64,000 bases of DNA from a virus (IMGVR_UViG_3300037541_000804:64001-128000); one strand, 5' to 3'. Positions 9,906-52,861 are shown, counted from the first letter of the stretch. Translations and numbers: made by a program. Notes: a model not told the origin generated them from the letters alone.

Positions 9906-9962
9906 ATAAAAAGATTACACGCGGGCGCGGAAAGTTGGGAAAGTAACTTTGAAAGTCACAAT

Positions 9963-14699: not shown

Positions 14700-15377
14700 T
14701 CATGGCCAATACTCGGCTATATCACTTTCCGCGATGATTCGTTTCGCTTCTTTGGACAAACTATCCCTATGAGCGGCCAAAATCTTCTTTTGCCCGCCCT
14801 TGTTTCTGCCGCGAAGTCTCAAAACCAGAGCGGCCTCGTCTTCTGGAATGTTGCCGATAAATAAAATCTTAAACGCCTCAAACCGCTTAGGCATCATGTG
14901 TTTTTCCAACTCAACCAAGACGCGGCGCATTGTTTCCTCGAAATTAATTGAGTCGTCTATTTTATTGTTCACCTCTTGTGAATGATGTTCTAGCTCAAGA
15001 GGCATTTTAGCATGGTAGCCATACTTCTTTGTCTTGCTCCACTTTTCGTAGAGGGGGCATTCCTCGCATTGGAGATTGCTAGGAGTTTCGGCGCAACCCT
15101 CTTCTCCAACTGCTGACTTACATTGCACGCATGGGCGAGCGTGACTCGTGTAAAGGTTGCGGAATTGGTTGTAAATCTGATTGCTGGCAATGCGTTGAAC
15201 CCATGGAGCTAGTTTGCGCGTTTGATCCCAGAGATGCCACTTTTTAGCAATGTGGGCGCGAATAATTTGGGCTATATCCTCCCAATCAATCCAACGAAGA
15301 ATACCCAGAGTCCACTTTCGGCGGCGCTTGTTTAGTTCTTTTTCAATCTGATCTGAGCAATCTTCGTAGGTTAGCAT
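14700..15377 (-). CDS. Phage sigma70-family (ECF-like) sigma factor with Cys-rich insert
   Basis: Region 2 DWEDIAQ...WDQTRKLAPWVQRIASNQIYNQFR; region 4-like C-terminus; CxxC-x8-C-x8-CxxC linker. Confidence 0.75.
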   Translation of the reverse strand: MLTYEDCSDQIEKELNKRRRKWTLGILRWIDWEDIAQIIRAHIAKKWHLWDQTRKLAPWVQRIASNQIYNQFRNLYTSHARPCVQCKSAVGEEGCAETPSNLQCEECPLYEKWSKTKKYGYHAKMPLELEHHSQEVNNKIDDSINFEETMRRVLVELEKHMMPKRFEAFKILFIGNIPEDEAALVLRLRGRNKGGQKKILAAHRDSLSKEAKRIIAESDIAEYWP

Positions 15378-15682
15378 TATAGTTTGCGGGGTTTGAATCT
15401 TTTGGCGACTGTCCCGCCGTTTTCAGAGAAAGAGAACGAGTTGAGTGTTTGAACGTATTTTTCGTCGTCGTCGGCTCCAGAAATACTAACTTGAAGACCG
15501 TCTAGTTCTGGAACGACAAATACATTGGAGCCATCTTCACTGTCGTCATCAAGTTGATGAGCAACCTTTGAGGCTTTGGTGGTTGTGGTTAGCGTGTTTA
15601 ACGATTGGCCGCAACTTGTGCAAAAGTTAGAAGTTGCAGTGGGAGCTTTCGTCCCACAGGAAGGGCAGTATTTTGGCGTCAT
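15377..15682 (-). CDS. Zinc-ribbon protein
   Basis: YCPSCG...NFCTSCG with acidic C-half; coupled to the sigma gene. Confidence 0.7.
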   Translation of the reverse strand: MTPKYCPSCGTKAPTATSNFCTSCGQSLNTLTTTTKASKVAHQLDDDSEDGSNVFVVPELDGLQVSISGADDDEKYVQTLNSFSFSENGGTVAKRFKPRKL

Positions 15683-15723
15683 GTTTAATATTAACGGCCA
15701 ATTACACTAATTAGTGGTAATTA

Positions 15724-45178: not shown

Positions 45179-47174
45179 GGGTTATTCGATTTCTCCAAAC
45201 AAGAGACCAAAGGCTTTCCAGCCGTATTTTTCAAACACTGGAATTGCTGGCATAGCAATAATTCCGACAATAAACAGTTCGTAAATGTGGTCGAGGATTT
45301 TCATGTTATTTTGTGTGTTTAAACTTAACCGACAACCTGCCACCCTGCAATCATTTTTTCGGTTTCTTTAATAGCGGCGAAGTCTGGCGTTAGTTTGCTT
45401 TTAAGCGGCACGATTCGTTCAATGGCAATCCATTTTTCGCCGTGAAGGGTTGTCAAGTCGGAGGCGTATTTTTTAGCGGCCTTTTTGGTTGTCGGGTAGT
45501 GGTAAAGCATGGGTGAGTATATATCAGTTATTTTCGCCCGTCAAACAAATTCTTCCCACTCTTTTTCTTTCATCGCGGCATACTGTTCGGCGGAAAGCGC
45601 GAAAACGCTGATTAGCGCGTCTGGTTCGGCTTGCACGATGAAATCGCCGACTGACAAGGGAGAAATGCAAGAAACAGCTTCGCCGTCAACCATGAACGAG
45701 CAAAAGAACCCGCTTTCTTGTTTCTTTTTTGTTTTTAGGGTGCTCAATTGTTTGTCGATTTCGACGATCAACTGGCCCTTTTCTTTTCTGGGGATTTCAG
45801 AATCGGCCAACAAATCATTTTTGGCCGCGATTAGTCCAACGCGGGACATTTTTTGGATTTCTTGGACAAAGGTTAAGAGATTGTGGGGCATGGTTTTAAT
45901 ATACAAAATAATTACCGCACGTCAACCACATTCTCCAACTTCACCATGACAAAAGGTGATTGATTTTTGTCTTCCAACTCAAGCCTAGTTTTCTTTGGAG
46001 ACAATTCGCTAGACAAAACCATGTTTTCAATCGTTTCTTCGGAGACTTGTTTTCCGTCCATGAAGAAAATGCTTTTTGGTTTGTTGCCAGAAATATTTAC
46101 GCCCAAAGATGTATTTCCGTTAAAGCCTTCATAGAGTTTTAGGCCGTCTTGATAAAAACACCGTTTAACACCATTGGGAAGATGGGGAACTTCACGCTCT
46201 TCTGACTGGATGCCAGCCTTTACATTGGCCGTATTCGCATATTCAACGCCGAACAATCCTTGGATTTGAGACTGTTTCTCAATATGAGCGGTAAATCCCT
46301 TTTTGAGCTTAACAGGTCGGCGTGTGGTTAGGCTAAAAATTGAGCCTTTGGGGCGGTTTGCTAGGCGGCGGGTAATTTCGGTGATTTTCATTTTATTTAA
46401 GTCTTTTAGGTAATTCTACGCCATATTTCAACCAGTGCCAAATCATTGTTTGGGCCGTGCCTTGTTCATGTTGCCAGCCGAGATTTAACTCAGGATGATT
46501 TTTCGTTTGGCGCTTTTTCATCAATCAATAAAGCGTTAAACTCCTTCTCTGTCAACGGGTTTGAGTCAATATATTCGCCGTCTTTGGGTGATTCCAAGGT
46601 GTAGAGAATTTCAATCAGTTCTTTGGATTTTTCTTCCTGAACGGCGAGGGCAATTTCTTTCTTTAAGTTACTGGTTTTCAACGCGATAGCGCCAGCGACG
46701 ACTTGAAAGAGCGGCGATTTCTCGCGGGGTTTAAGGGAATCTCGCAATTCTTTATTGTCGGCCAAAAGAGGCAAAACTGGCATTTTTACTTGGCGCAAGA
46801 ACATTCTTGTTTTATCATCGCGGCCCAAACAAAAGAATTCATTAGTTTGTCGGCGCTTCTTCTGTTCGGTCAAGTAATAGAATGCGTTGTTGACTTGATC
46901 TACTGTAGCGAATTGAGTGTATTTGTCTTTAATCATGGTTTCAATTTACGTTTATTATTCCAGTTGTCAAGATGTTTTTGACACATATCAATCCAACCTA
47001 TCAACGCCTCGTCTTTGGTTAGAATCGCCCGCTTCTTTACCTCAAACAAGAATTCGGCGTATTCTTTCGGGCGCGAAGAGTAATAGCGATTGATTTGCCA
47101 ATAGTCGAACCCCCTTACAAGGCCCAAGTGTTTAATACAGCGAAAGAGGTTTTTTAGGGATTGCATGATTTTAT

Positions 47175-48476
47175 TAGTAAATTGACGAAAAGAAAACCCC
47201 TTCGTTTACGGAGGGGATGAATTTTCGCATTGTTTTAGGAAATTTTGTAAAAGTTAGTGTAATATAATTTGAATGACGCATCGCGGCTACAAATATCGCA
47301 TATATCCAACAGCTTGTCAAGAGGGAATCTTGCGCAAAACGATTGGATCGTGTAGATTTGTGTACAATTGGGCGCTGGCACAGCGGCGAGAGGCGTGGGT
47401 GACGAGTAAAAAAAGCGTTTCTTACAGCGCAACGTCCAAAGGTTTGACCGAACTCAAGGAGTCGCCCGAGAAAGTTTGGCTTAACGACGTTTCAAGCGTT
47501 TGCTTACAACAAAGTTTGCGAAATCTTGATTTGGCGTTTAACAACTTTTTTCGCAAAAAATCCGCATATCCATCTTTCAAGAGTCGAAAAAATGGTGGCA
47601 GTGCGCGATTTATGGATAACGCTTTCCAAATTAAAGGAGATGGCTTGTTTCTTGCAAAAATTAAAACGCCAATCGTGATTAAGTGGTCGCGTCAGCTTTC
47701 CAGCGCTCCTAATTCATGCACAATTTCCCAAAACGCTGCGGGTCAGTGGTTTGCATCGTTCTTGTGCGAGGAAGAAATACCTCACTTGCCGCCAACGAAT
47801 AACAAGGTTGGCATTGACGTTGGAATTGAAAACTTTGCCACACTTTCAGACGGGCGAAAATTTCAATCTCCGAAAGCGATTCGTAAGTTGCGCAAAAAGT
47901 TAGCATGCTTGCAAAAGCGTCACTCGCGCAAGCAAAAAGGCTCTAAAAACCGTGAACGCGCTCGCAAAAAGGTTGCCCGCGTTCACCAGCACATCGCAGA
48001 TGTGCGTAAAGATTTTCTCCACAAACTGTCAACTCAACTCGTTCGCGAAAACCAAGCGATTGCAATTGAGGATTTGGCGGTGTCAAACATGGTTAAGAAC
48101 CGCAAACTTTCTCGCTGTATCAGCGAGCAAGGCTGGCGCGACTTTCGCACTATGCTTGAATACAAGTGCGAATGGTATGGGCGAGAACTACTTGTCGTTG
48201 ACAGGTTTTTTCCCTCATCCAAGACCTGTTCTTGTTGTGGAGCGAAAGCAGAGTTAACATTGAAAGATCGTGTTTGGAGTTGCGCCTGTGGCGCAACGCA
48301 TGATCGCGACGTGAACGCCGCGAAAAACATTTTGGCCGCTGGACAAGCGGTTGCAGCCTGTGGAGCTGACGGAAGACCAACGAAGAACTACGTTCTTCGC
48401 GGCAGTCGGCAACGAAGCAGGAAACCTTCTTAGCAACGAGAAGAATCCCCGTCGTTCACGGCGGGGAGTATGTCAA
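47175..48476 (+). mobile_element. IS200/IS605-family TnpB-only element, copy 1
   Basis: Left hairpin CCCCTTCG-TTTA-CGGAGGGG (47197-47216); right end GAAT-CCCCGTCG..CGGCGGGG..TCAA (to 48476). Left boundary inferred after TTAT; no tnpA. Confidence 0.8.
47273..48433 (+). CDS. tnpB: RNA-guided endonuclease TnpB
   Basis: YKYRIYP; RuvC GIDVG / IEDL / DRDVNAAKNI; CSCC..CAC zinc ribbon. Confidence 0.95.
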   Translation: MTHRGYKYRIYPTACQEGILRKTIGSCRFVYNWALAQRREAWVTSKKSVSYSATSKGLTELKESPEKVWLNDVSSVCLQQSLRNLDLAFNNFFRKKSAYPSFKSRKNGGSARFMDNAFQIKGDGLFLAKIKTPIVIKWSRQLSSAPNSCTISQNAAGQWFASFLCEEEIPHLPPTNNKVGIDVGIENFATLSDGRKFQSPKAIRKLRKKLACLQKRHSRKQKGSKNRERARKKVARVHQHIADVRKDFLHKLSTQLVRENQAIAIEDLAVSNMVKNRKLSRCISEQGWRDFRTMLEYKCEWYGRELLVVDRFFPSSKTCSCCGAKAELTLKDRVWSCACGATHDRDVNAAKNILAAGQAVAACGADGRPTKNYVLRGSRQRSRKPS

Positions 48477-48496
48477 TTAGAAAAACAATTCAAACA
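48350..48496 (+). ncRNA. Predicted omegaRNA (scaffold plus flanking guide) of TnpB copy 1
   Basis: 3' segment conserved with copy 2; established TnpB biology places the guide just 3' of TCAA. 5' limit approximate. Confidence 0.65.
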
Positions 48497-48668
48497 AGGA
48501 ATGACATGGGAAAATCATGGTGTTCATGGGTGGCATATTGACCACATAATCCCACTGTCCTCTGCCAAGGACGATATTGAACTGTTGAAAAAACTTTGCC
48601 ATTATACTAATCTTCAACCTCTTTGGGCCGAAGAAAACAGGATTAAATCTAACAAGATAACAGCTTAA
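48477..48668 (+). pseudogene. 3' remnant of an HNH endonuclease gene
   Basis: LEKQF..GMTWENHG..WHIDHIIP...HYTNLQPLW, paralogous to 23654-24442; no start codon; begins exactly at the TnpB right end. Confidence 0.8.
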
Positions 48669-49584
48669 CCACTTCTCGCCCTTTCGATGATAGCTCTCGC
48701 TTCCCATTAAGGCGCAAAAATCCCTTCTTTAATAGGTGATGCTCATGATCTTGACGCAAGGCTGTAGCTGGAACGCTCATGCATGCTGAAATTTCTGTCA
48801 GGGTCATTGGCCCGCGTTCGTAAAGCAATTTTAGTATCCCAAGCTCCAAATTATCGAGTCCGTGAACTTTAATATCTGCAATATTTGAGAGATTCGCAAA
48901 GTCCGCCGAATCAAAAGAATTTCTTTTCTTAATCGCACAAAAGTTAGCCACCTTGCGAGCCATTTGTCCAGCATCGCGAGGATTTGGCCTGATACTATCA
49001 ACAATTTCCTCCAAAATATTATCCTCGAATTCGATTTCTGGCACGTTTAATTGAATAATTTGCATTAGTTCGCTCTTTGAATACGGTGCAAGAGAAACAA
49101 CCTCCATTCGGCTCTTCAACGGTTTGCCAAGTTTATTAGAATCCGTAGTGGCAAAATTCATCGACAATTTGCAAAAATCAAACTCATAATCTGTCCCGTC
49201 GTGATTAACGCGGCGAATATGGCTCTTTTCAGTGTTAAGCAGGGTCAAAAACCACGTTTGGACGGCGCGAGGAAGCTCGTGTGACTCGTCTAGCAAAAGA
49301 CAAACGTTCTCCCTATCAACAATATGAGGCATATATACATTGTCGATAAACCACTGAACGCTTTTAACGTTTGCAGAGTTAATTTCGATATATTTGCCCG
49401 TTGTTCCAGACTTAGTAATCTCTTTTGCAAACTCTCGAATGAACCTTGTTTTCCCAAACCCAAAAGCCCCCGTGAACAAAAGATGTGGCAATGGCCGTCC
49501 TGCTTCGCGGGTTTCTAGGTGAAACGATAGCAAAGACTTGATTTTATCCTGTCCCGTTAGATTAGCGAATAGTGTTTTAGTCAT
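48649..49584 (-). CDS. ruvB: RuvB-like Holliday junction branch-migration ATPase
   Basis: GQ....L..., LPHLLFTGAFGFGKT, LDESH, ATT...L.KPLKSR, PR, GLD, C-terminal wHTH. Confidence 0.8.
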   Translation of the reverse strand: MTKTLFANLTGQDKIKSLLSFHLETREAGRPLPHLLFTGAFGFGKTRFIREFAKEITKSGTTGKYIEINSANVKSVQWFIDNVYMPHIVDRENVCLLLDESHELPRAVQTWFLTLLNTEKSHIRRVNHDGTDYEFDFCKLSMNFATTDSNKLGKPLKSRMEVVSLAPYSKSELMQIIQLNVPEIEFEDNILEEIVDSIRPNPRDAGQMARKVANFCAIKKRNSFDSADFANLSNIADIKVHGLDNLELGILKLLYERGPMTLTEISACMSVPATALRQDHEHHLLKKGFLRLNGKRELSSKGREVVKLLSC

Positions 49585-50669
49585 GTGAGTATATTAGATG
49601 ATTAATTTTCACTGTCAAGAATTACTGCGGAAAACAGTGTTTCGCCATCCCTTTCGGCGGATTCCTTACGACTGATTTCATTACAGGCCACAAGCGCTTT
49701 GTAATTTTCGCTTTCTGAGAAGTCTTGAAGAAGGATTTTTGAAATTGCTTCAAACAGTTCTTCCTTTTGTTTCGGGGAGACTGGTTGAGAAGCATAATGA
49801 TTCCAGCAAGCAGAGACCATGTTAGAGCATTCTTTGAGCACTTGTTGTTTTGTTATCATAGCGTGAGTATATTAAGTGGTTAATCGGGCCGTGTCAACTG
49901 AATTGGAAAGCTTCAACGACAATTTCTGGCTCTTTTTCAACTTTCGACGGAATTACTTGAAACGTTTGGGCGAAGTTTTTTGCTGCCCGTTTTTGAAGAT
50001 CAACTCGCGAAGCCTTGAATTCTTCGTCATCAGTGAATCCGAGTGCGCGGAGTTGGTTGATTGTCATAGTGACAAAGCTGGTTGAGCCGTGGGTTCTCAT
50101 GTGGTTATTTGTTGAAAAAGTCTAGGTCAGTAAGGAGCTTTAGTCCAGCGAATTCTTGGGTTGGAACTTTTTTATCCCAATATTTCATGCGAGTTTCAAA
50201 AGAGGCGTGTTGGCAATCGTTCATGATAATACTCTCCATTATTTTTGCCATTAGTCAAACCCATTCCCAAACACTTCATCGTAATCGTAATTAAAATGCT
50301 CACAATAATCAAACACTGTGTCCTTTTGGCGGCGGGTTACATCGTCGCCCCTAAATGTGGATTTCCTACAATCGCCAAGCCATGATAGGTTTTTAACGCA
50401 CATCCAGCCTTGTGACAGAAGCCAGCTTTCCCATGATTGGTCAAAGCCGCTCTTTGAATATCGGCCCTTTTTACGAGAATTTTCATTCGCGCCGCATTTA
50501 AAAACCGCCAAATAGGTTGCAGCAATCTCATGTTTTGCGCCGCTAAATCCGTAAAAGTCGCCGTTTGGCGCAATCCACGCATTATATTCAAAATTAGCGT
50601 CTGGAATCTCTTGTGGGATTTTGTCTTGGAAGATTATGTTGATCTTTTTCATCCAGCCAATATACCCAT

Positions 50670-51113
50670 TTACTTCCCCTTGTCCAGTCTTTTGTATCCC
50701 CAAGTTTTGCGGCGATTTGCTTCGTGCCACTCAATAGGTTCTCCGTGTAGGCAATTATCGTAATAAGCATCAAAGATTACGCCGTTCTTAATTACTTGCA
50801 AGTGTTCGGTGGTAAACACCAAATATGTGCCGCGTTTGAATTTATCAACTGATTTTAAAATCGGGCGATTCTTTAGCCAAACGGTTTTTCTCTTTCGGCC
50901 AAAGTTTTTGGTCAGAGAGAGGGCTTCATCCCACGTCATATATTTGCGCCAAGCGTAGATTTTCTTTTTCGGCCAATTCTTTGACTTGCGCAATTTTCCA
51001 AGTCGCCATTGGACTTTGTAAACTGGTTCTCCCGTGATTAGGGAAACAGCCACCGTTCCACAAGAGAAATCACACTCGGGAAAGTCGGCCCGATTAAAGG
51101 TTTTCAACTTCAT
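50670..51113 (-). CDS. Papain-like (C39-type) peptidase-like protein
   Basis: SCGTVAVSLITG ... EHLQVI...IFD. Confidence 0.45.
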   Translation of the reverse strand: MKLKTFNRADFPECDFSCGTVAVSLITGEPVYKVQWRLGKLRKSKNWPKKKIYAWRKYMTWDEALSLTKNFGRKRKTVWLKNRPILKSVDKFKRGTYLVFTTEHLQVIKNGVIFDAYYDNCLHGEPIEWHEANRRKTWGYKRLDKGK

Positions 51114-51158
51114 CTCTTATTTTGGCCGAAAATAACGAACAAATCAAGAAAAAAAGAT

Positions 51159-51256
51159 TGAACGCGACAAGATTTGAACTTGTTCTCTCCATTTGCGTGC
51201 CTACTCCAGAATTAACTGTCTCGGACTTGAGTATGCTACCATTACATTACGCGCTC
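51159..51256 (-). tRNA. tRNA-like RNA with an expanded anticodon/variable region (identity unassignable)
   Basis: Acceptor GAGCGCG/CGCGTTC, D arm ATGT-AATGGTA-GCAT, T arm ACAAG-TTCAAAT-CTTGT; 48 nt between the arms instead of about 22. Confidence 0.65.
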
Positions 51257-51260
51257 AAAT

Positions 51261-51348
51261 TGGAAATGAGAATTGCCACTTTCGATACTACGAAAAGTCC
51301 CTAATCCTCCCTTGCGGGTAGTGGCCCGTTTTGCATTAGGCTCTCATT
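51261..51348 (-). ncRNA. 88-nt pseudoknotted RNA with acceptor-like stem and 3' CCA
   Basis: AATGAGA/TCTCATT + T + CCA; crossing helices CCTAAT/ATTAGG and GCCACT/AGTGGC; CCC-GCAA-GGG hairpin. Confidence 0.55.
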
Positions 51349-51360
51349 GTTTAGAAATTA

Positions 51361-51406
51361 TTGCCTGTCTCTCCAAGCTGTCACCGATGGCCTTTACCAA
51401 ACCACG
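51361..51406 (-). ncRNA. c4-antisense-like RNA 3' part
   Basis: GGTGACA followed by GCTTG-GAGAGA-CAGGC hairpin; resemblance from memory only. Confidence 0.35.
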
Positions 51407-52718
51407 CGCAAAGAAAGCCCCTTCCTTTAGGTAGGGGATGAATTTGCGGTCAAACAAAATAATTAAAAAGTTTTTGGGTGTTTTTTAACAATTAGTGTAA
51501 TATATGGTGATTGCACCACCGCGCTTACAAATTCCGAATTTATCCAACGACAGCGCAAGAACAAATCTTGCGGCAGACGATTGGGTGTACGCGGTTCATC
51601 TATAATTGGGCGCTGGCCCAAAGAAGGGAGGCATGGGTGCAAGATAAGAAAAACATGACCTATGCAAAGTCTTGCAAAGCGTTGACGGAGTTAAAAGACT
51701 CGCCAGAGCGCGAGTGGCTTAACGATGTGTCAAGCGTTTGCTTGCAACAAAGCCTCAATAACTTGGACGTTGCATTCGGCAATTTCTTTAAGAAGCGGGC
51801 GGCATATCCCAGCTTTAAGTCTCGCAAAAACGGTGGTTCTGCGCGGTTTATGGGCAACGCCTTTCGGCTGAAAGGCGAAAGCCTCTTCCTCGCGAAGATT
51901 AAAACGCCAATTAAAGTTCAATGGTCGCGCCCGCTTTCCAGCGTTCCGAACTCCATTACCGTTTCTCAAAACGCCAGCGGTCAATGGTTTGCGTCGTTCC
52001 TTTGTGAGGAGGAAATTGAAAAGCTTCCGCCTTCCAACGGTCGAATCGGTATCGACGTTGGTATTGAAAATTTTGCCACACTCTCGGATGGGTGCAAATT
52101 TCAATCTCCAAAAGCAATTCGTAAACTGCGCAAGAAAATGGCACGCCTGCAAAAGAGTCATTCGCGTAAGCAAAAAGGCTCCAAAAACCGTGAACGCACT
52201 CGCAAAAAAGTCGCCCGCCTTCACCAGCATATTTCAGATGTGCGCAAAGATTTTCTCCACAAACTGTCAACTCAACTCGTTCGCGAAAACCAAGCGATAG
52301 CGTTAGAAGACTTGTCTGTATCAAACATGGTTAAGAACCGCAAACTTTCTCGCTGTATCAGCGAGCAAGGCTGGCGAGACTTTCGCACCATGCTTGAATA
52401 CAAATGCGAATGGTATGGGCGCGAGCTACTAATAGTAGATCGTTGGTTTCCAAGCAGCAAAACCTGCTCATGTTGTGGAGCGAAGGCTAGCTTTGGCCTA
52501 GAAACAAGGCAATGGACGTGTGGCGGCTGCGGCGCTAGCCATGACCGAGACGTTAACGCCGCAAAAAACATTTTGGCCGCTGGACAAGCGGTGTCAGACT
52601 GTGGAGTGGACGGAAGACCAACGAAGAACTATGTTCTTCGGGGCAGGACACTACGAAGCAGTAAATCAAAGGCGCGAGCCAAGGAATCCCCGTCTCTTTA
52701 GGGCGGGGAGGATGTCAA
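51398..52718 (+). mobile_element. IS200/IS605-family TnpB-only element, copy 2
   Basis: TTAC then AAAG-CCCCTTCC..GGTAGGGG left end; GAAT-CCCCGTC..GGCGGGG..TCAA right end. IS608-like signals; left boundary inferred. Confidence 0.8.
51511..52701 (+). CDS. tnpB: RNA-guided endonuclease TnpB
   Basis: Intact RuvC D/E/D motifs and zinc ribbon; TTG start 9 nt after GTGTAAT, same spacing as copy 1. Confidence 0.95.
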   Translation: MHHRAYKFRIYPTTAQEQILRQTIGCTRFIYNWALAQRREAWVQDKKNMTYAKSCKALTELKDSPEREWLNDVSSVCLQQSLNNLDVAFGNFFKKRAAYPSFKSRKNGGSARFMGNAFRLKGESLFLAKIKTPIKVQWSRPLSSVPNSITVSQNASGQWFASFLCEEEIEKLPPSNGRIGIDVGIENFATLSDGCKFQSPKAIRKLRKKMARLQKSHSRKQKGSKNRERTRKKVARLHQHISDVRKDFLHKLSTQLVRENQAIALEDLSVSNMVKNRKLSRCISEQGWRDFRTMLEYKCEWYGRELLIVDRWFPSSKTCSCCGAKASFGLETRQWTCGGCGASHDRDVNAAKNILAAGQAVSDCGVDGRPTKNYVLRGRTLRSSKSKARAKESPSL

Positions 52719-52728
52719 CTGTCTAATA

Positions 52729-52861
52729 AAACTTTAGCACGCTAAATTCGTTCCGTCAATCCCCAAGACACAATATCGAGGGGCGAAACCATTAACCGTT
52801 GGTTCCAGCAATCAACCCATTTGTAGGGTGCCTATCGCGTTTAGGCACGGTGCTAAAGTTT
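52729..52861. ncRNA. Candidate 133-nt multi-stem RNA
   Basis: 12-bp terminal inverted repeat AAACTTTAGCAC/GTGCTAAAGTTT enclosing four hairpins; intergenic. Confidence 0.5.

Follow-up and report, generated by a model that had tools for sequence, protein, structure and literature searches.

Two TnpB genes and the elements that carry them

We analyzed a stretch of 64,000 nucleotides (IMGVR_UViG_3300037541_000804:64001-128000, called the window here; coordinates are those of the window unless the genome is named), which is part of an IMG/VR virus genome of 165,329 bp rated complete. The window holds two genes for TnpB nucleases, tnpB-A and tnpB-B, whose products are 80% identical. An earlier note, made from the sequence of the window alone, had taken them for phage-adapted RNA-guided nucleases that are expressed from a phage late motif under a phage sigma factor. 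We find that they are not bare phage genes: each tnpB lies within a complete IS200/IS605-type element (IS_A and IS_B) with left-end and right-end hairpins and a guide-RNA scaffold, and the motif TTAGTGTAATATA, correctly placed by the note before both genes, is located inside the element, between the left-end hairpin and the start codon. The notion of phage adaptation is supported, as the core of this motif, GTGTAAT, is largely specific to the clade of these TnpBs and is a signal of the phage family. A third copy (tnpB-C in IS_C), which the note did not include, is found outside the window at genome 53366-54532, with GTGTAAT followed by 9 nt and a GTG start.

Both TnpBs of the window possess HTH_OrfB_IS605, OrfB_IS605 (RuvC), and zinc-ribbon Cas12f1-like_TNB domains (E 8e-33, 1.5e-26, and 2.9e-19, all over the Pfam cut-offs), and their best match among solved structures is ISDra2 TnpB (8BF8, E 3.5e-81). 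Copies A, B, and C all retain the RuvC residues D182, E266, and D346, in agreement with the previous reading of the first two. Between copies, dN/dS is 0.07-0.15, with 0.11-0.15 for tnpB-A, although dS exceeds 1 (i.e., synonymous sites are saturated), and three copies with such dS values between them coexist in this one phage genome. As already noticed, tnpB-A and tnpB-B are both opposite in direction to the neighboring genes, which are on the minus strand.

The Y1 transposase TnpA is required for transposition and is absent from non-autonomous members of the family. The earlier observation that the window lacks tnpA extends to the whole 165,329-bp genome and to five related phage records, in none of which did we find a match to PF01797; we therefore consider the elements non-autonomous. 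On balance, IS_A, IS_B, and the third copy are best explained as anciently diverged, non-autonomous, TnpB-only (IS1341-like) elements of the IS200/IS605 family.

Element ends and guide RNA

The left-end hairpin sits 55-75 nt upstream of the tnpB start, and the right-end hairpin follows the stop codon or overlaps it. The ends are imperfect subterminal hairpins, not terminal inverted repeats; their stems covary between copies, and the right end ...ATGTCAA is common to all 13 copies compared. In the alignment of copies A and B, homology begins directly after the TTTAT that precedes IS_A, and TTAT or TTAC stands directly before the left end in every full copy read. For a related locus, L084, the occupied site could be compared with the corresponding empty site of this genome, which places the junction after GTTAC (one pair, with a boundary ambiguous by 2 nt). 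We delimited IS_A and IS_B on the basis of the TTAT/TTAC left flank and of this junction, and TTAY is a probable candidate for the target-adjacent motif (TAM).

The final 200 nt of the elements have a consensus fold that is conserved among the 13 copies compared, and compensatory changes affect 14 of its 37 pairs, in line with a guide-RNA (omegaRNA) scaffold that overlaps tnpB at its 3' end. The Rfam families HgcC and sot0042, both RNAs of tnpB 3' ends, give weak matches at 48296-48486, far below the gathering score. In characterized systems, TnpB acts as a guide-RNA-directed homing nuclease that cuts element-free alleles and so drives retention of the element, the guide being the flank 3' of the right end (PMC10055086). 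The guides predicted at this position in IS_A and IS_B (guide A and guide B) have no second match in the genome with up to 1 mismatch, so that no self-targeting was detected.

Table 1 Features of the two elements and of related phage signals, in window coordinates.
Feature	Position	Strand	Basis
IS_A, complete TnpB-only IS200/IS605-type element	47175-48476	+	A/B alignment; right end ATGTCAA
TTTAT, candidate target/TAM at IS_A left end	47170-47174	+	TTAT/TTAC before full copies; L084 comparison; inferred
IS_A left-end hairpin	47197-47216	+	sequence; 8-pair stem, kept in 9 copies
TTAGTGTAATATA of IS_A (core GTGTAAT 47257-47263, 9 nt before ATG)	47254-47266	+	exact match; core GTGTAA invariant in 14/14
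tnpB-A, 386 aa, ATG start, RuvC D182/E266/D346 intact	47273-48433	+	Pfam domains, structure match, catalytic residues, dN/dS
IS_A putative guide-RNA (omegaRNA) scaffold (right-end hairpin 48447-48466)	48300-48476	+	consensus fold, 14/37 compensatory pairs; weak Rfam
Predicted guide of IS_A, directly 3' of right end	48477-48496	+	position per TnpB biology (PMC10055086)
IS_B, second complete TnpB-only element (TTTAC at 51393-51397 before it)	51398-52718	+	alignment, shared right end
IS_B left-end hairpin	51418-51437	+	sequence, A/B alignment, conservation
TTAGTGTAATATA of IS_B (core GTGTAAT 51495-51501, 9 nt before TTG)	51492-51504	+	exact match
tnpB-B, 396 aa, TTG start aligned with ATG of copy A	51511-52701	+	Pfam domains, catalytic residues, alignment
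IS_B putative guide-RNA scaffold (right-end hairpin 52688-52708)	52540-52718	+	consensus fold, shared right end
Predicted guide of IS_B	52719-52738	+	flank 3' of right end
Phage's own GTGTAAT-N8-ATG before 675-aa portal-like gene	9914-9920	-	motif search
Sigma-like protein, 225 aa, in operon headed by GTGTAAT 15701-15707	14700-15377	-	Pfam, homologues, Foldseek
Early-type promoter TTGACA-N16-TAATAT, 6 nt before clamp-loader ATG	49591-49618	-	promoter scan
Further canonical TTGACA-N16/17-TAATAT early-region promoters	49869-49897, 46943-46970	-	promoter scan

Several insertion sites have features of their own. Directly after the right end of IS_A, at 48477-48668 on the plus strand, an HNH endonuclease gene is represented by its ~63 C-terminal codons; the N-terminal two thirds are missing, and clear homology links it to the HNH genes of L185 and L187, which are full-length (195 aa). 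IS_A thus adjoins the gene of another selfish nuclease and may have truncated it. IS_C directly follows a phage GTGTAAT box, its left end coming after GTGTAAT TCC TTAT (L001:1233-1260 and 2574-2740, i.e., genome 53232-53259 and 54573-54739). The right flank of IS_C is similar, with 3 mismatches in 16, to codons 6-11 of the gene that follows, which has its own GTGTAAT-N7-ATG. At L084:3660-3760, an element splits a gene after codon 3, and its degenerate right end offers an in-frame ATG (ATG AAT AAA TGT CAA ...) that could restart the split gene.

A TnpB lineage on viral and metagenome contigs

In a search of 185,579 species-representative prokaryote genomes, no copy exceeded 54% identity to these TnpBs. 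In IMG/VR, 14 loci have identities of 71-83%, and nothing lies between these and 47%; a metagenome protein collection adds about 100 proteins (55-85% identity), whose contigs measure up to 212 kb. We built a FastTree phylogeny of 233 sequences, 75 of which came from prokaryote genomes. In this tree, the three copies belong, with support 97, to a clade of 121 sequences; the others are 12 from IMG/VR and 106 from metagenomes, and none of the 75 from prokaryote genomes is included, i.e., the clade is known only from viral and metagenome contigs. Its sisters are TnpBs of Ktedonobacter and other Chloroflexota, Myxococcales, cyanobacteria, Vibrio, and Pseudoalteromonas. The surroundings were phage-like for all seven different clade-member proteins that we looked up (eight gene neighborhoods), with rIIB, RecA-like genes, HNH genes, and small-ORF (open reading frame) arrays.

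Searches of cultured phages with the region (nucleotide) and with a 509-aa protein gave no match, and the terminase has relatives that are only ~22-25% identical. The cluster names of close homologues include one Planctomycetota label, from a metagenome-assembled genome (3-5-kb contig), and are otherwise uninformative. The best explanation for the three copies, and one that we hold with some confidence, is a TnpB lineage resident in a family of roughly 150-210-kb aquatic phages.

Three distant members of the clade (L173:5001-6185, L176:5001-6170, and L164:287-1453), 56-65% identical to copy A, are co-directional with phage operons, in which their start and stop codons overlap those of adjacent genes. 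These tnpB genes have no end hairpins and no GTGTAAT, keep the D/E/D residues, and occur in partly syntenic surroundings (glycosyltransferase - tnpB - GDP-mannose dehydratase - RecA-like); judged by this organization, they look like domesticated phage genes. TnpB homologues occur in 451 cultured phage records, so phage tnpB genes as such are already known. What appears to be new is a phage-confined, long-diversified lineage with a box that matches the phage's own gene class, and with distant members built into operons without element ends.

GTGTAAT as a start-proximal signal of the phage

The only exact matches to TTAGTGTAATATA are those of the two tnpB genes, both on the plus strand, and allowing 1 mismatch yields 3 matches where 0.04 are expected. 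At both genes, GTGTAAT is followed by 9 nt and the start codon, exactly as first described. In this genome, no hexamer is more strongly enriched than GTGTAA in the 30-nt stretches upstream of ORFs (17 occurrences compared to 1.3 expected). The pattern GTGTAAT-N4-12-ATG followed by an ORF occurs 10 times, where 210 heptamers with an equal base composition average 1.06. Next in this ranking is GTTAGTA, which marks a second motif class. The distribution of gaps between GTGTAAT and ATG has a sharp maximum at 7-8 nt. The looser pattern GTGTAAY-N7-10-ATG, which also allows GTGTAAC, was found 13 times in another complete genome of the phage family (160,188 bp), compared to 2 for the reversed control. 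A literature search for GTGTAAT returned primer matches only.

The genes headed by GTGTAAT include the tape measure gene (PF10145), a portal-like gene (a label that is an Atlas lead only), a tail-like gene, and three free-standing homing endonuclease genes, two of the GIY-YIG type and one of the HNH type. The earlier claim that the tnpB genes and the homing endonucleases have a signal in common is therefore borne out, with virion genes in addition. We rejected the possibility that the TAA of GTGTAAT generally serves as the stop codon of the upstream gene, as this is true for 1 of 30 occurrences. One-mismatch variants at the 7-8-nt gap include GTATAAT, which is a G followed by a perfect TATAAT; because of this, the box behaves like a -10 element TnTAAT with a preceding G.

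Host-type promoters form a different class. TTGACW-N16-18-TANNNT occurs at 53 sites where 13 are expected, concentrated on the minus strand at ~28-71 kb of the window, in the small-gene array around IS_A and IS_B and antisense to them. We sought a -35 partner before both tnpB genes and found none. These observations support the view that the GTGTAAT class is distinct from the host-type TTGACA/TAnnnT early promoters around tnpB. The -10 boxes of the early class end 6-9 nt before ATG, and there is no Shine-Dalgarno usage (a Shine-Dalgarno-like word in 28 of 276 genes and in 20 of 276 random windows). Since the early -10 boxes end, like GTGTAAT, so close to ATG, it appears that this phage makes leaderless messages as a rule. 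Its reliance on leaderless mRNAs seems near-total, and this gene design hints at the type of host.

The fixed 7-8 nt to ATG also resembles the geometry of a ribosome-binding site, and many copies of GTGTAAT sit in very short gaps between co-directional genes of a genome that does not use Shine-Dalgarno sequences. The box might accordingly be a signal at the RNA level, for translation initiation or processing, placed like a Shine-Dalgarno sequence and shared by tnpB. We regard this as very unlikely. GTATAAT, with its perfect TATAAT, is among the variants at the same spacing, and clearly promoter-like TTGACA-N17-TAnnnT sites are found at the same distance from ATG, so leaderless transcription would be general in the phage. 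Furthermore, tnpB-A and tnpB-B are antisense to their neighbors and hence need a promoter of their own, for which we found no other candidate.

One sigma-70-like site, TTGACA-N17-GATATT with an upstream TG, is located at 47292-47320 on the minus strand, antisense in the first codons of tnpB-A. It faces a 77-aa gene (46933-47166), and IS_A now fills the region upstream of this gene; the site is absent from IS_B and may be due to chance.

Conservation of the box in the TnpB clade

In the 14 aligned copies, GTGTAA is invariant, the next T is present in 13, and the flanks are unconserved. GTGTAA is kept even in the five copies without a left-end hairpin, and the position equal to T(-7) of a host-type TAATAT box varies between T, C, and A. 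Within 45 nt before tnpB, GTGTAAT is found in 13 of 14 clade loci and in the three copies here (16 of 17); among 77 prokaryote loci one has it there, and among 65 distant viral loci none. The earlier note would have abandoned its view had host chromosomal copies carried the motif; the single chromosomal occurrence among 77 loci, along with the 54% identity ceiling in prokaryote genomes, leaves that view standing.

Chromosomal sister elements have a -10-like box (TATAAT, TACAAT, or TAAAAT) 6-7 nt before ATG, from which we conclude that both the promoter position and the near-leaderless layout are ancestral. The phage-specific part is the sequence of the box, not its position, and the idea of a phage motif on tnpB holds to that extent only.

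The low dN/dS despite dS above 1, the intact catalytic residues, the covarying guide-RNA structure, the invariant box, and the lack of a close chromosomal source also argue against the elements being inert hitch-hikers, i.e., insertion sequences of host origin that are decaying and currently inactive in the phage. TnpA is indeed missing from this genome and from the five related records, and in some relatives (e.g., L094 and L095) the left-end hairpin is gone or tnpB is truncated, as such decay would produce; we nevertheless consider this explanation highly improbable.

Sigma-like proteins of the phage

Two ORFs of the phage match Sigma70_r2 just below the Pfam cut-off (20.7 and 21.3 bits compared to 24), one of which also matches a PHROG sigma family (E 3.5e-8), and both genes are conserved in the sister phage. 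One encodes the 225-aa protein listed in the table, and the other is found at genome 131269-131820 on the minus strand. For the 225-aa protein of Table 1, homologues bear PF04542 and JGI "sigma24" names. Its profile finds region 2 of an ECF sigma factor as the best solved structure (E about 0.3), and a Foldseek search with its AlphaFold model (pLDDT 77) returns top rows that are nearly all sigma factors, with a best E of 0.024. Single-sequence searches of the sigma-like proteins against solved structures returned nothing, and hhalign detected no similarity to gp36 of phage phiEco32. The 225-aa protein has a conserved Cys-rich insert between two helical domains, in which C83, C86, C95, and C107 are invariant and C104 is nearly so, and a zinc-ribbon gene (15377-15682) precedes its gene in the same operon.

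In phiEco32, the middle and late promoters consist of a single AATGTA box centered at -11.5, which is read by the phage sigma factor gp36 with gp79 (PMC12276001). GTGTAAT-N7/8-ATG would also be centered near -11.5 if transcription starts at ATG, and the two systems are alike in having a one-piece box in the -10 region with a TGTA core, no -35 element, and separate host-type early promoters. A further likeness would be a phage-encoded, distant two-domain homologue of sigma factors, for which the sigma-like proteins are the candidates here. The systems differ in that these proteins are not similar to gp36 (no search was made for a gp79 counterpart) and that the box here abuts the start codon and would give leaderless messages.

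Proposed expression and homing of the elements

We favor, with moderate confidence, the interpretation that these are phage-confined, non-autonomous IS605 elements whose ancestral promoter, close to the start codon, now reads like the non-early signal of the phage family. Each element consists of a left-end hairpin, a one-piece, promoter-like GTGTAAT box without -35, an intact RuvC nuclease gene, and a guide-RNA scaffold that reaches to the right end, with the flank as the predicted guide. GTGTAAT at 7-10 nt before the start would give a tnpB mRNA with almost no leader. Because the box equals the signal of virion and homing endonuclease genes, unlike the surrounding early promoters, tnpB and its guide RNA would most likely be transcribed with the non-early gene class, possibly by an RNA polymerase that has bound one of the two sigma-like proteins. 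Phage genomes would then be numerous and recombination active. The nuclease could then cut element-free alleles (TTAY plus a match to the guide) in sibling or co-infecting genomes, and recombination would copy the element back, so that it is kept and spread without TnpA. Late expression, alongside replication and recombination, would be favorable for homing among such genomes.

The main rival is that the promoter was simply inherited with the insertion sequence: a host-read, -35-less -10 element (GTG plus TAATAT, 7 nt before the start) whose likeness to the phage class is coincidental, and from which the host RNA polymerase would transcribe tnpB whenever phage DNA is present. Several observations that weigh against our interpretation speak for this one. 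The spacing at tnpB, 9 nt here and 7-10 nt across the clade, is 1-2 nt above the 7-8-nt mode of the phage genes and fits TAATAT-N7 better. Most copies can also be read as GTG plus TAATAT, TAATAT is the -10 of the phage's own early promoters as well, and the architecture is the same as in the sister elements of Ktedonobacter and cyanobacteria. In addition, one chromosomal relative, from Pseudoalteromonas, has GTGTAAT-N10-ATG. However, the letters that are invariant across the 14 saturated copies are those of GTGTAA, and the sixth letter of TAATAT is free to vary. Of the 17 clade copies, 16 have GTGTAAT, as opposed to 1 of 77 chromosomal relatives and none of the 65 distant viral ones, and it is also the phage family's top start-proximal word. 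The inherited promoter thus accounts less well for the pattern of conservation and for a distribution specific to the clade; we judge it unlikely, though it retains some weight because of the 9-nt spacing and the ancestral architecture.

Other points count against a phage-class promoter and homing as well. TTG and GTG are poor starts for leaderless mRNAs in some bacteria, and these are the start codons of tnpB-B and tnpB-C, respectively. The sigma-like calls are individually weak (Pfam below cut-off, Foldseek E of at least 0.02, no similarity to gp36). Copies in the chromosome of the host may also exist. We searched IMG/VR for an empty allele matching guide A or guide B and found none: guide A has 11 exact matches, all of which are chance or HNH-gene matches without the expected flank, and guide B and the left flank of IS_B have no match. 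On the supporting side, copies are located at different sites in related phages, and the site occupied in L084 is empty in this genome. That empty site, the only one available, differs from the L084 guide at 7 of 20 positions, which again counts against homing. The syntenic phage in L180/L181 was considered as an empty site for IS_A and rejected, as two other genes are found there, which indicates a replacement and not a clean empty site.

Relation to known systems

TnpB, the ancestor of Cas12, is reportedly a guide-RNA-directed nuclease according to Karvelis in 2021. The elements resemble ISDra2/IS608 and the IS1341 group in domain architecture, RuvC D/E/D residues, zinc ribbon, and subterminal hairpins at both ends, and IS608 in a right end finishing with TCAA and a left flank of the TTAC/TTAT type. 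As in other TnpB-only elements of the IS200/IS605 family, the scaffold overlaps the 3' end of tnpB and TnpA is absent, which is the commonest state of such elements. In contrast to these, the lineage here is found only on phage and metagenome contigs, with at most 54% identity to prokaryote copies; its promoter box reads like a gene signal of the resident phage family; three copies with dS above 1 occupy one phage genome; and the zinc ribbon has CxC instead of the second CxxC.

In T4-like phages, free-standing homing endonuclease genes (seg/mob) carry their own phage-class promoters. The tnpB genes are similar in that a selfish nuclease gene with its own, here putative, phage-type promoter lies between phage genes, often against their direction, and the GIY-YIG and HNH endonucleases of this phage carry the same GTGTAAT box as tnpB. 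They differ in that the target would be set by a guide RNA, not by the protein, and that transposon ends are still present. Cyanophage A-1(L) also carries a tnpB, which is induced during infection and is identical to host copies (bioRxiv 10.64898/2026.02.14.705889), and this identity points to a recent capture. Here, in contrast, a host copy was not found and the lineage has diversified within phages.

TnpB-driven homing is already established in bacteria; to our knowledge, the natural role of TnpB is understood only for bacterial chromosomes, and our literature search returned almost nothing on what phage-borne TnpBs do. In the present lineage, an intact nuclease, a guide RNA, and a phage-matching box have been kept through saturating divergence. 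This makes it possible to test the idea that RNA-guided nucleases work in homing or in competition between phages, with their timing set by the phage transcription program. More speculatively, and in our opinion with a rather low probability, the whole lineage is the resident of one phage family, inherited and diversified within it, expressed from the phage's non-early promoter class by way of a phage sigma factor, and used as an RNA-guided gene drive or a weapon against co-infecting relatives, and its distant members (56-65% identity), which lack both ends and lie in phage operons, are now ordinary phage genes. If true, this would represent a step from a transposon nuclease towards a phage-owned, CRISPR-less RNA-guided nuclease. 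The clade is also a source of compact and diverse TnpB/guide-RNA pairs with a probable TTAY target-adjacent motif, and the phage offers a candidate pair of one-piece promoter and sigma factor from an uncultured family.

Additional observations

At 51159-51256 on the minus strand, ~140 nt left of the left end of IS_B, Rfam calls a tRNA with 40.7 bits, over the gathering score, and ARAGORN run on the whole window finds no tRNA, including at this position.

A second start-proximal class, GTTAGTAT-N6/7-start, occurs genome-wide, e.g., at genome 6752, 14566, 129206, and 153397 (minus strand). It heads genes for a GIY-YIG endonuclease, an FkbM methyltransferase, a sulfotransferase, and others, and no clear temporal meaning emerged from the annotation of these genes. 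The 13-mer region of tnpB-A, GTTAGTGTAAT, also contains the first six letters of the GTTAGTAT motif.

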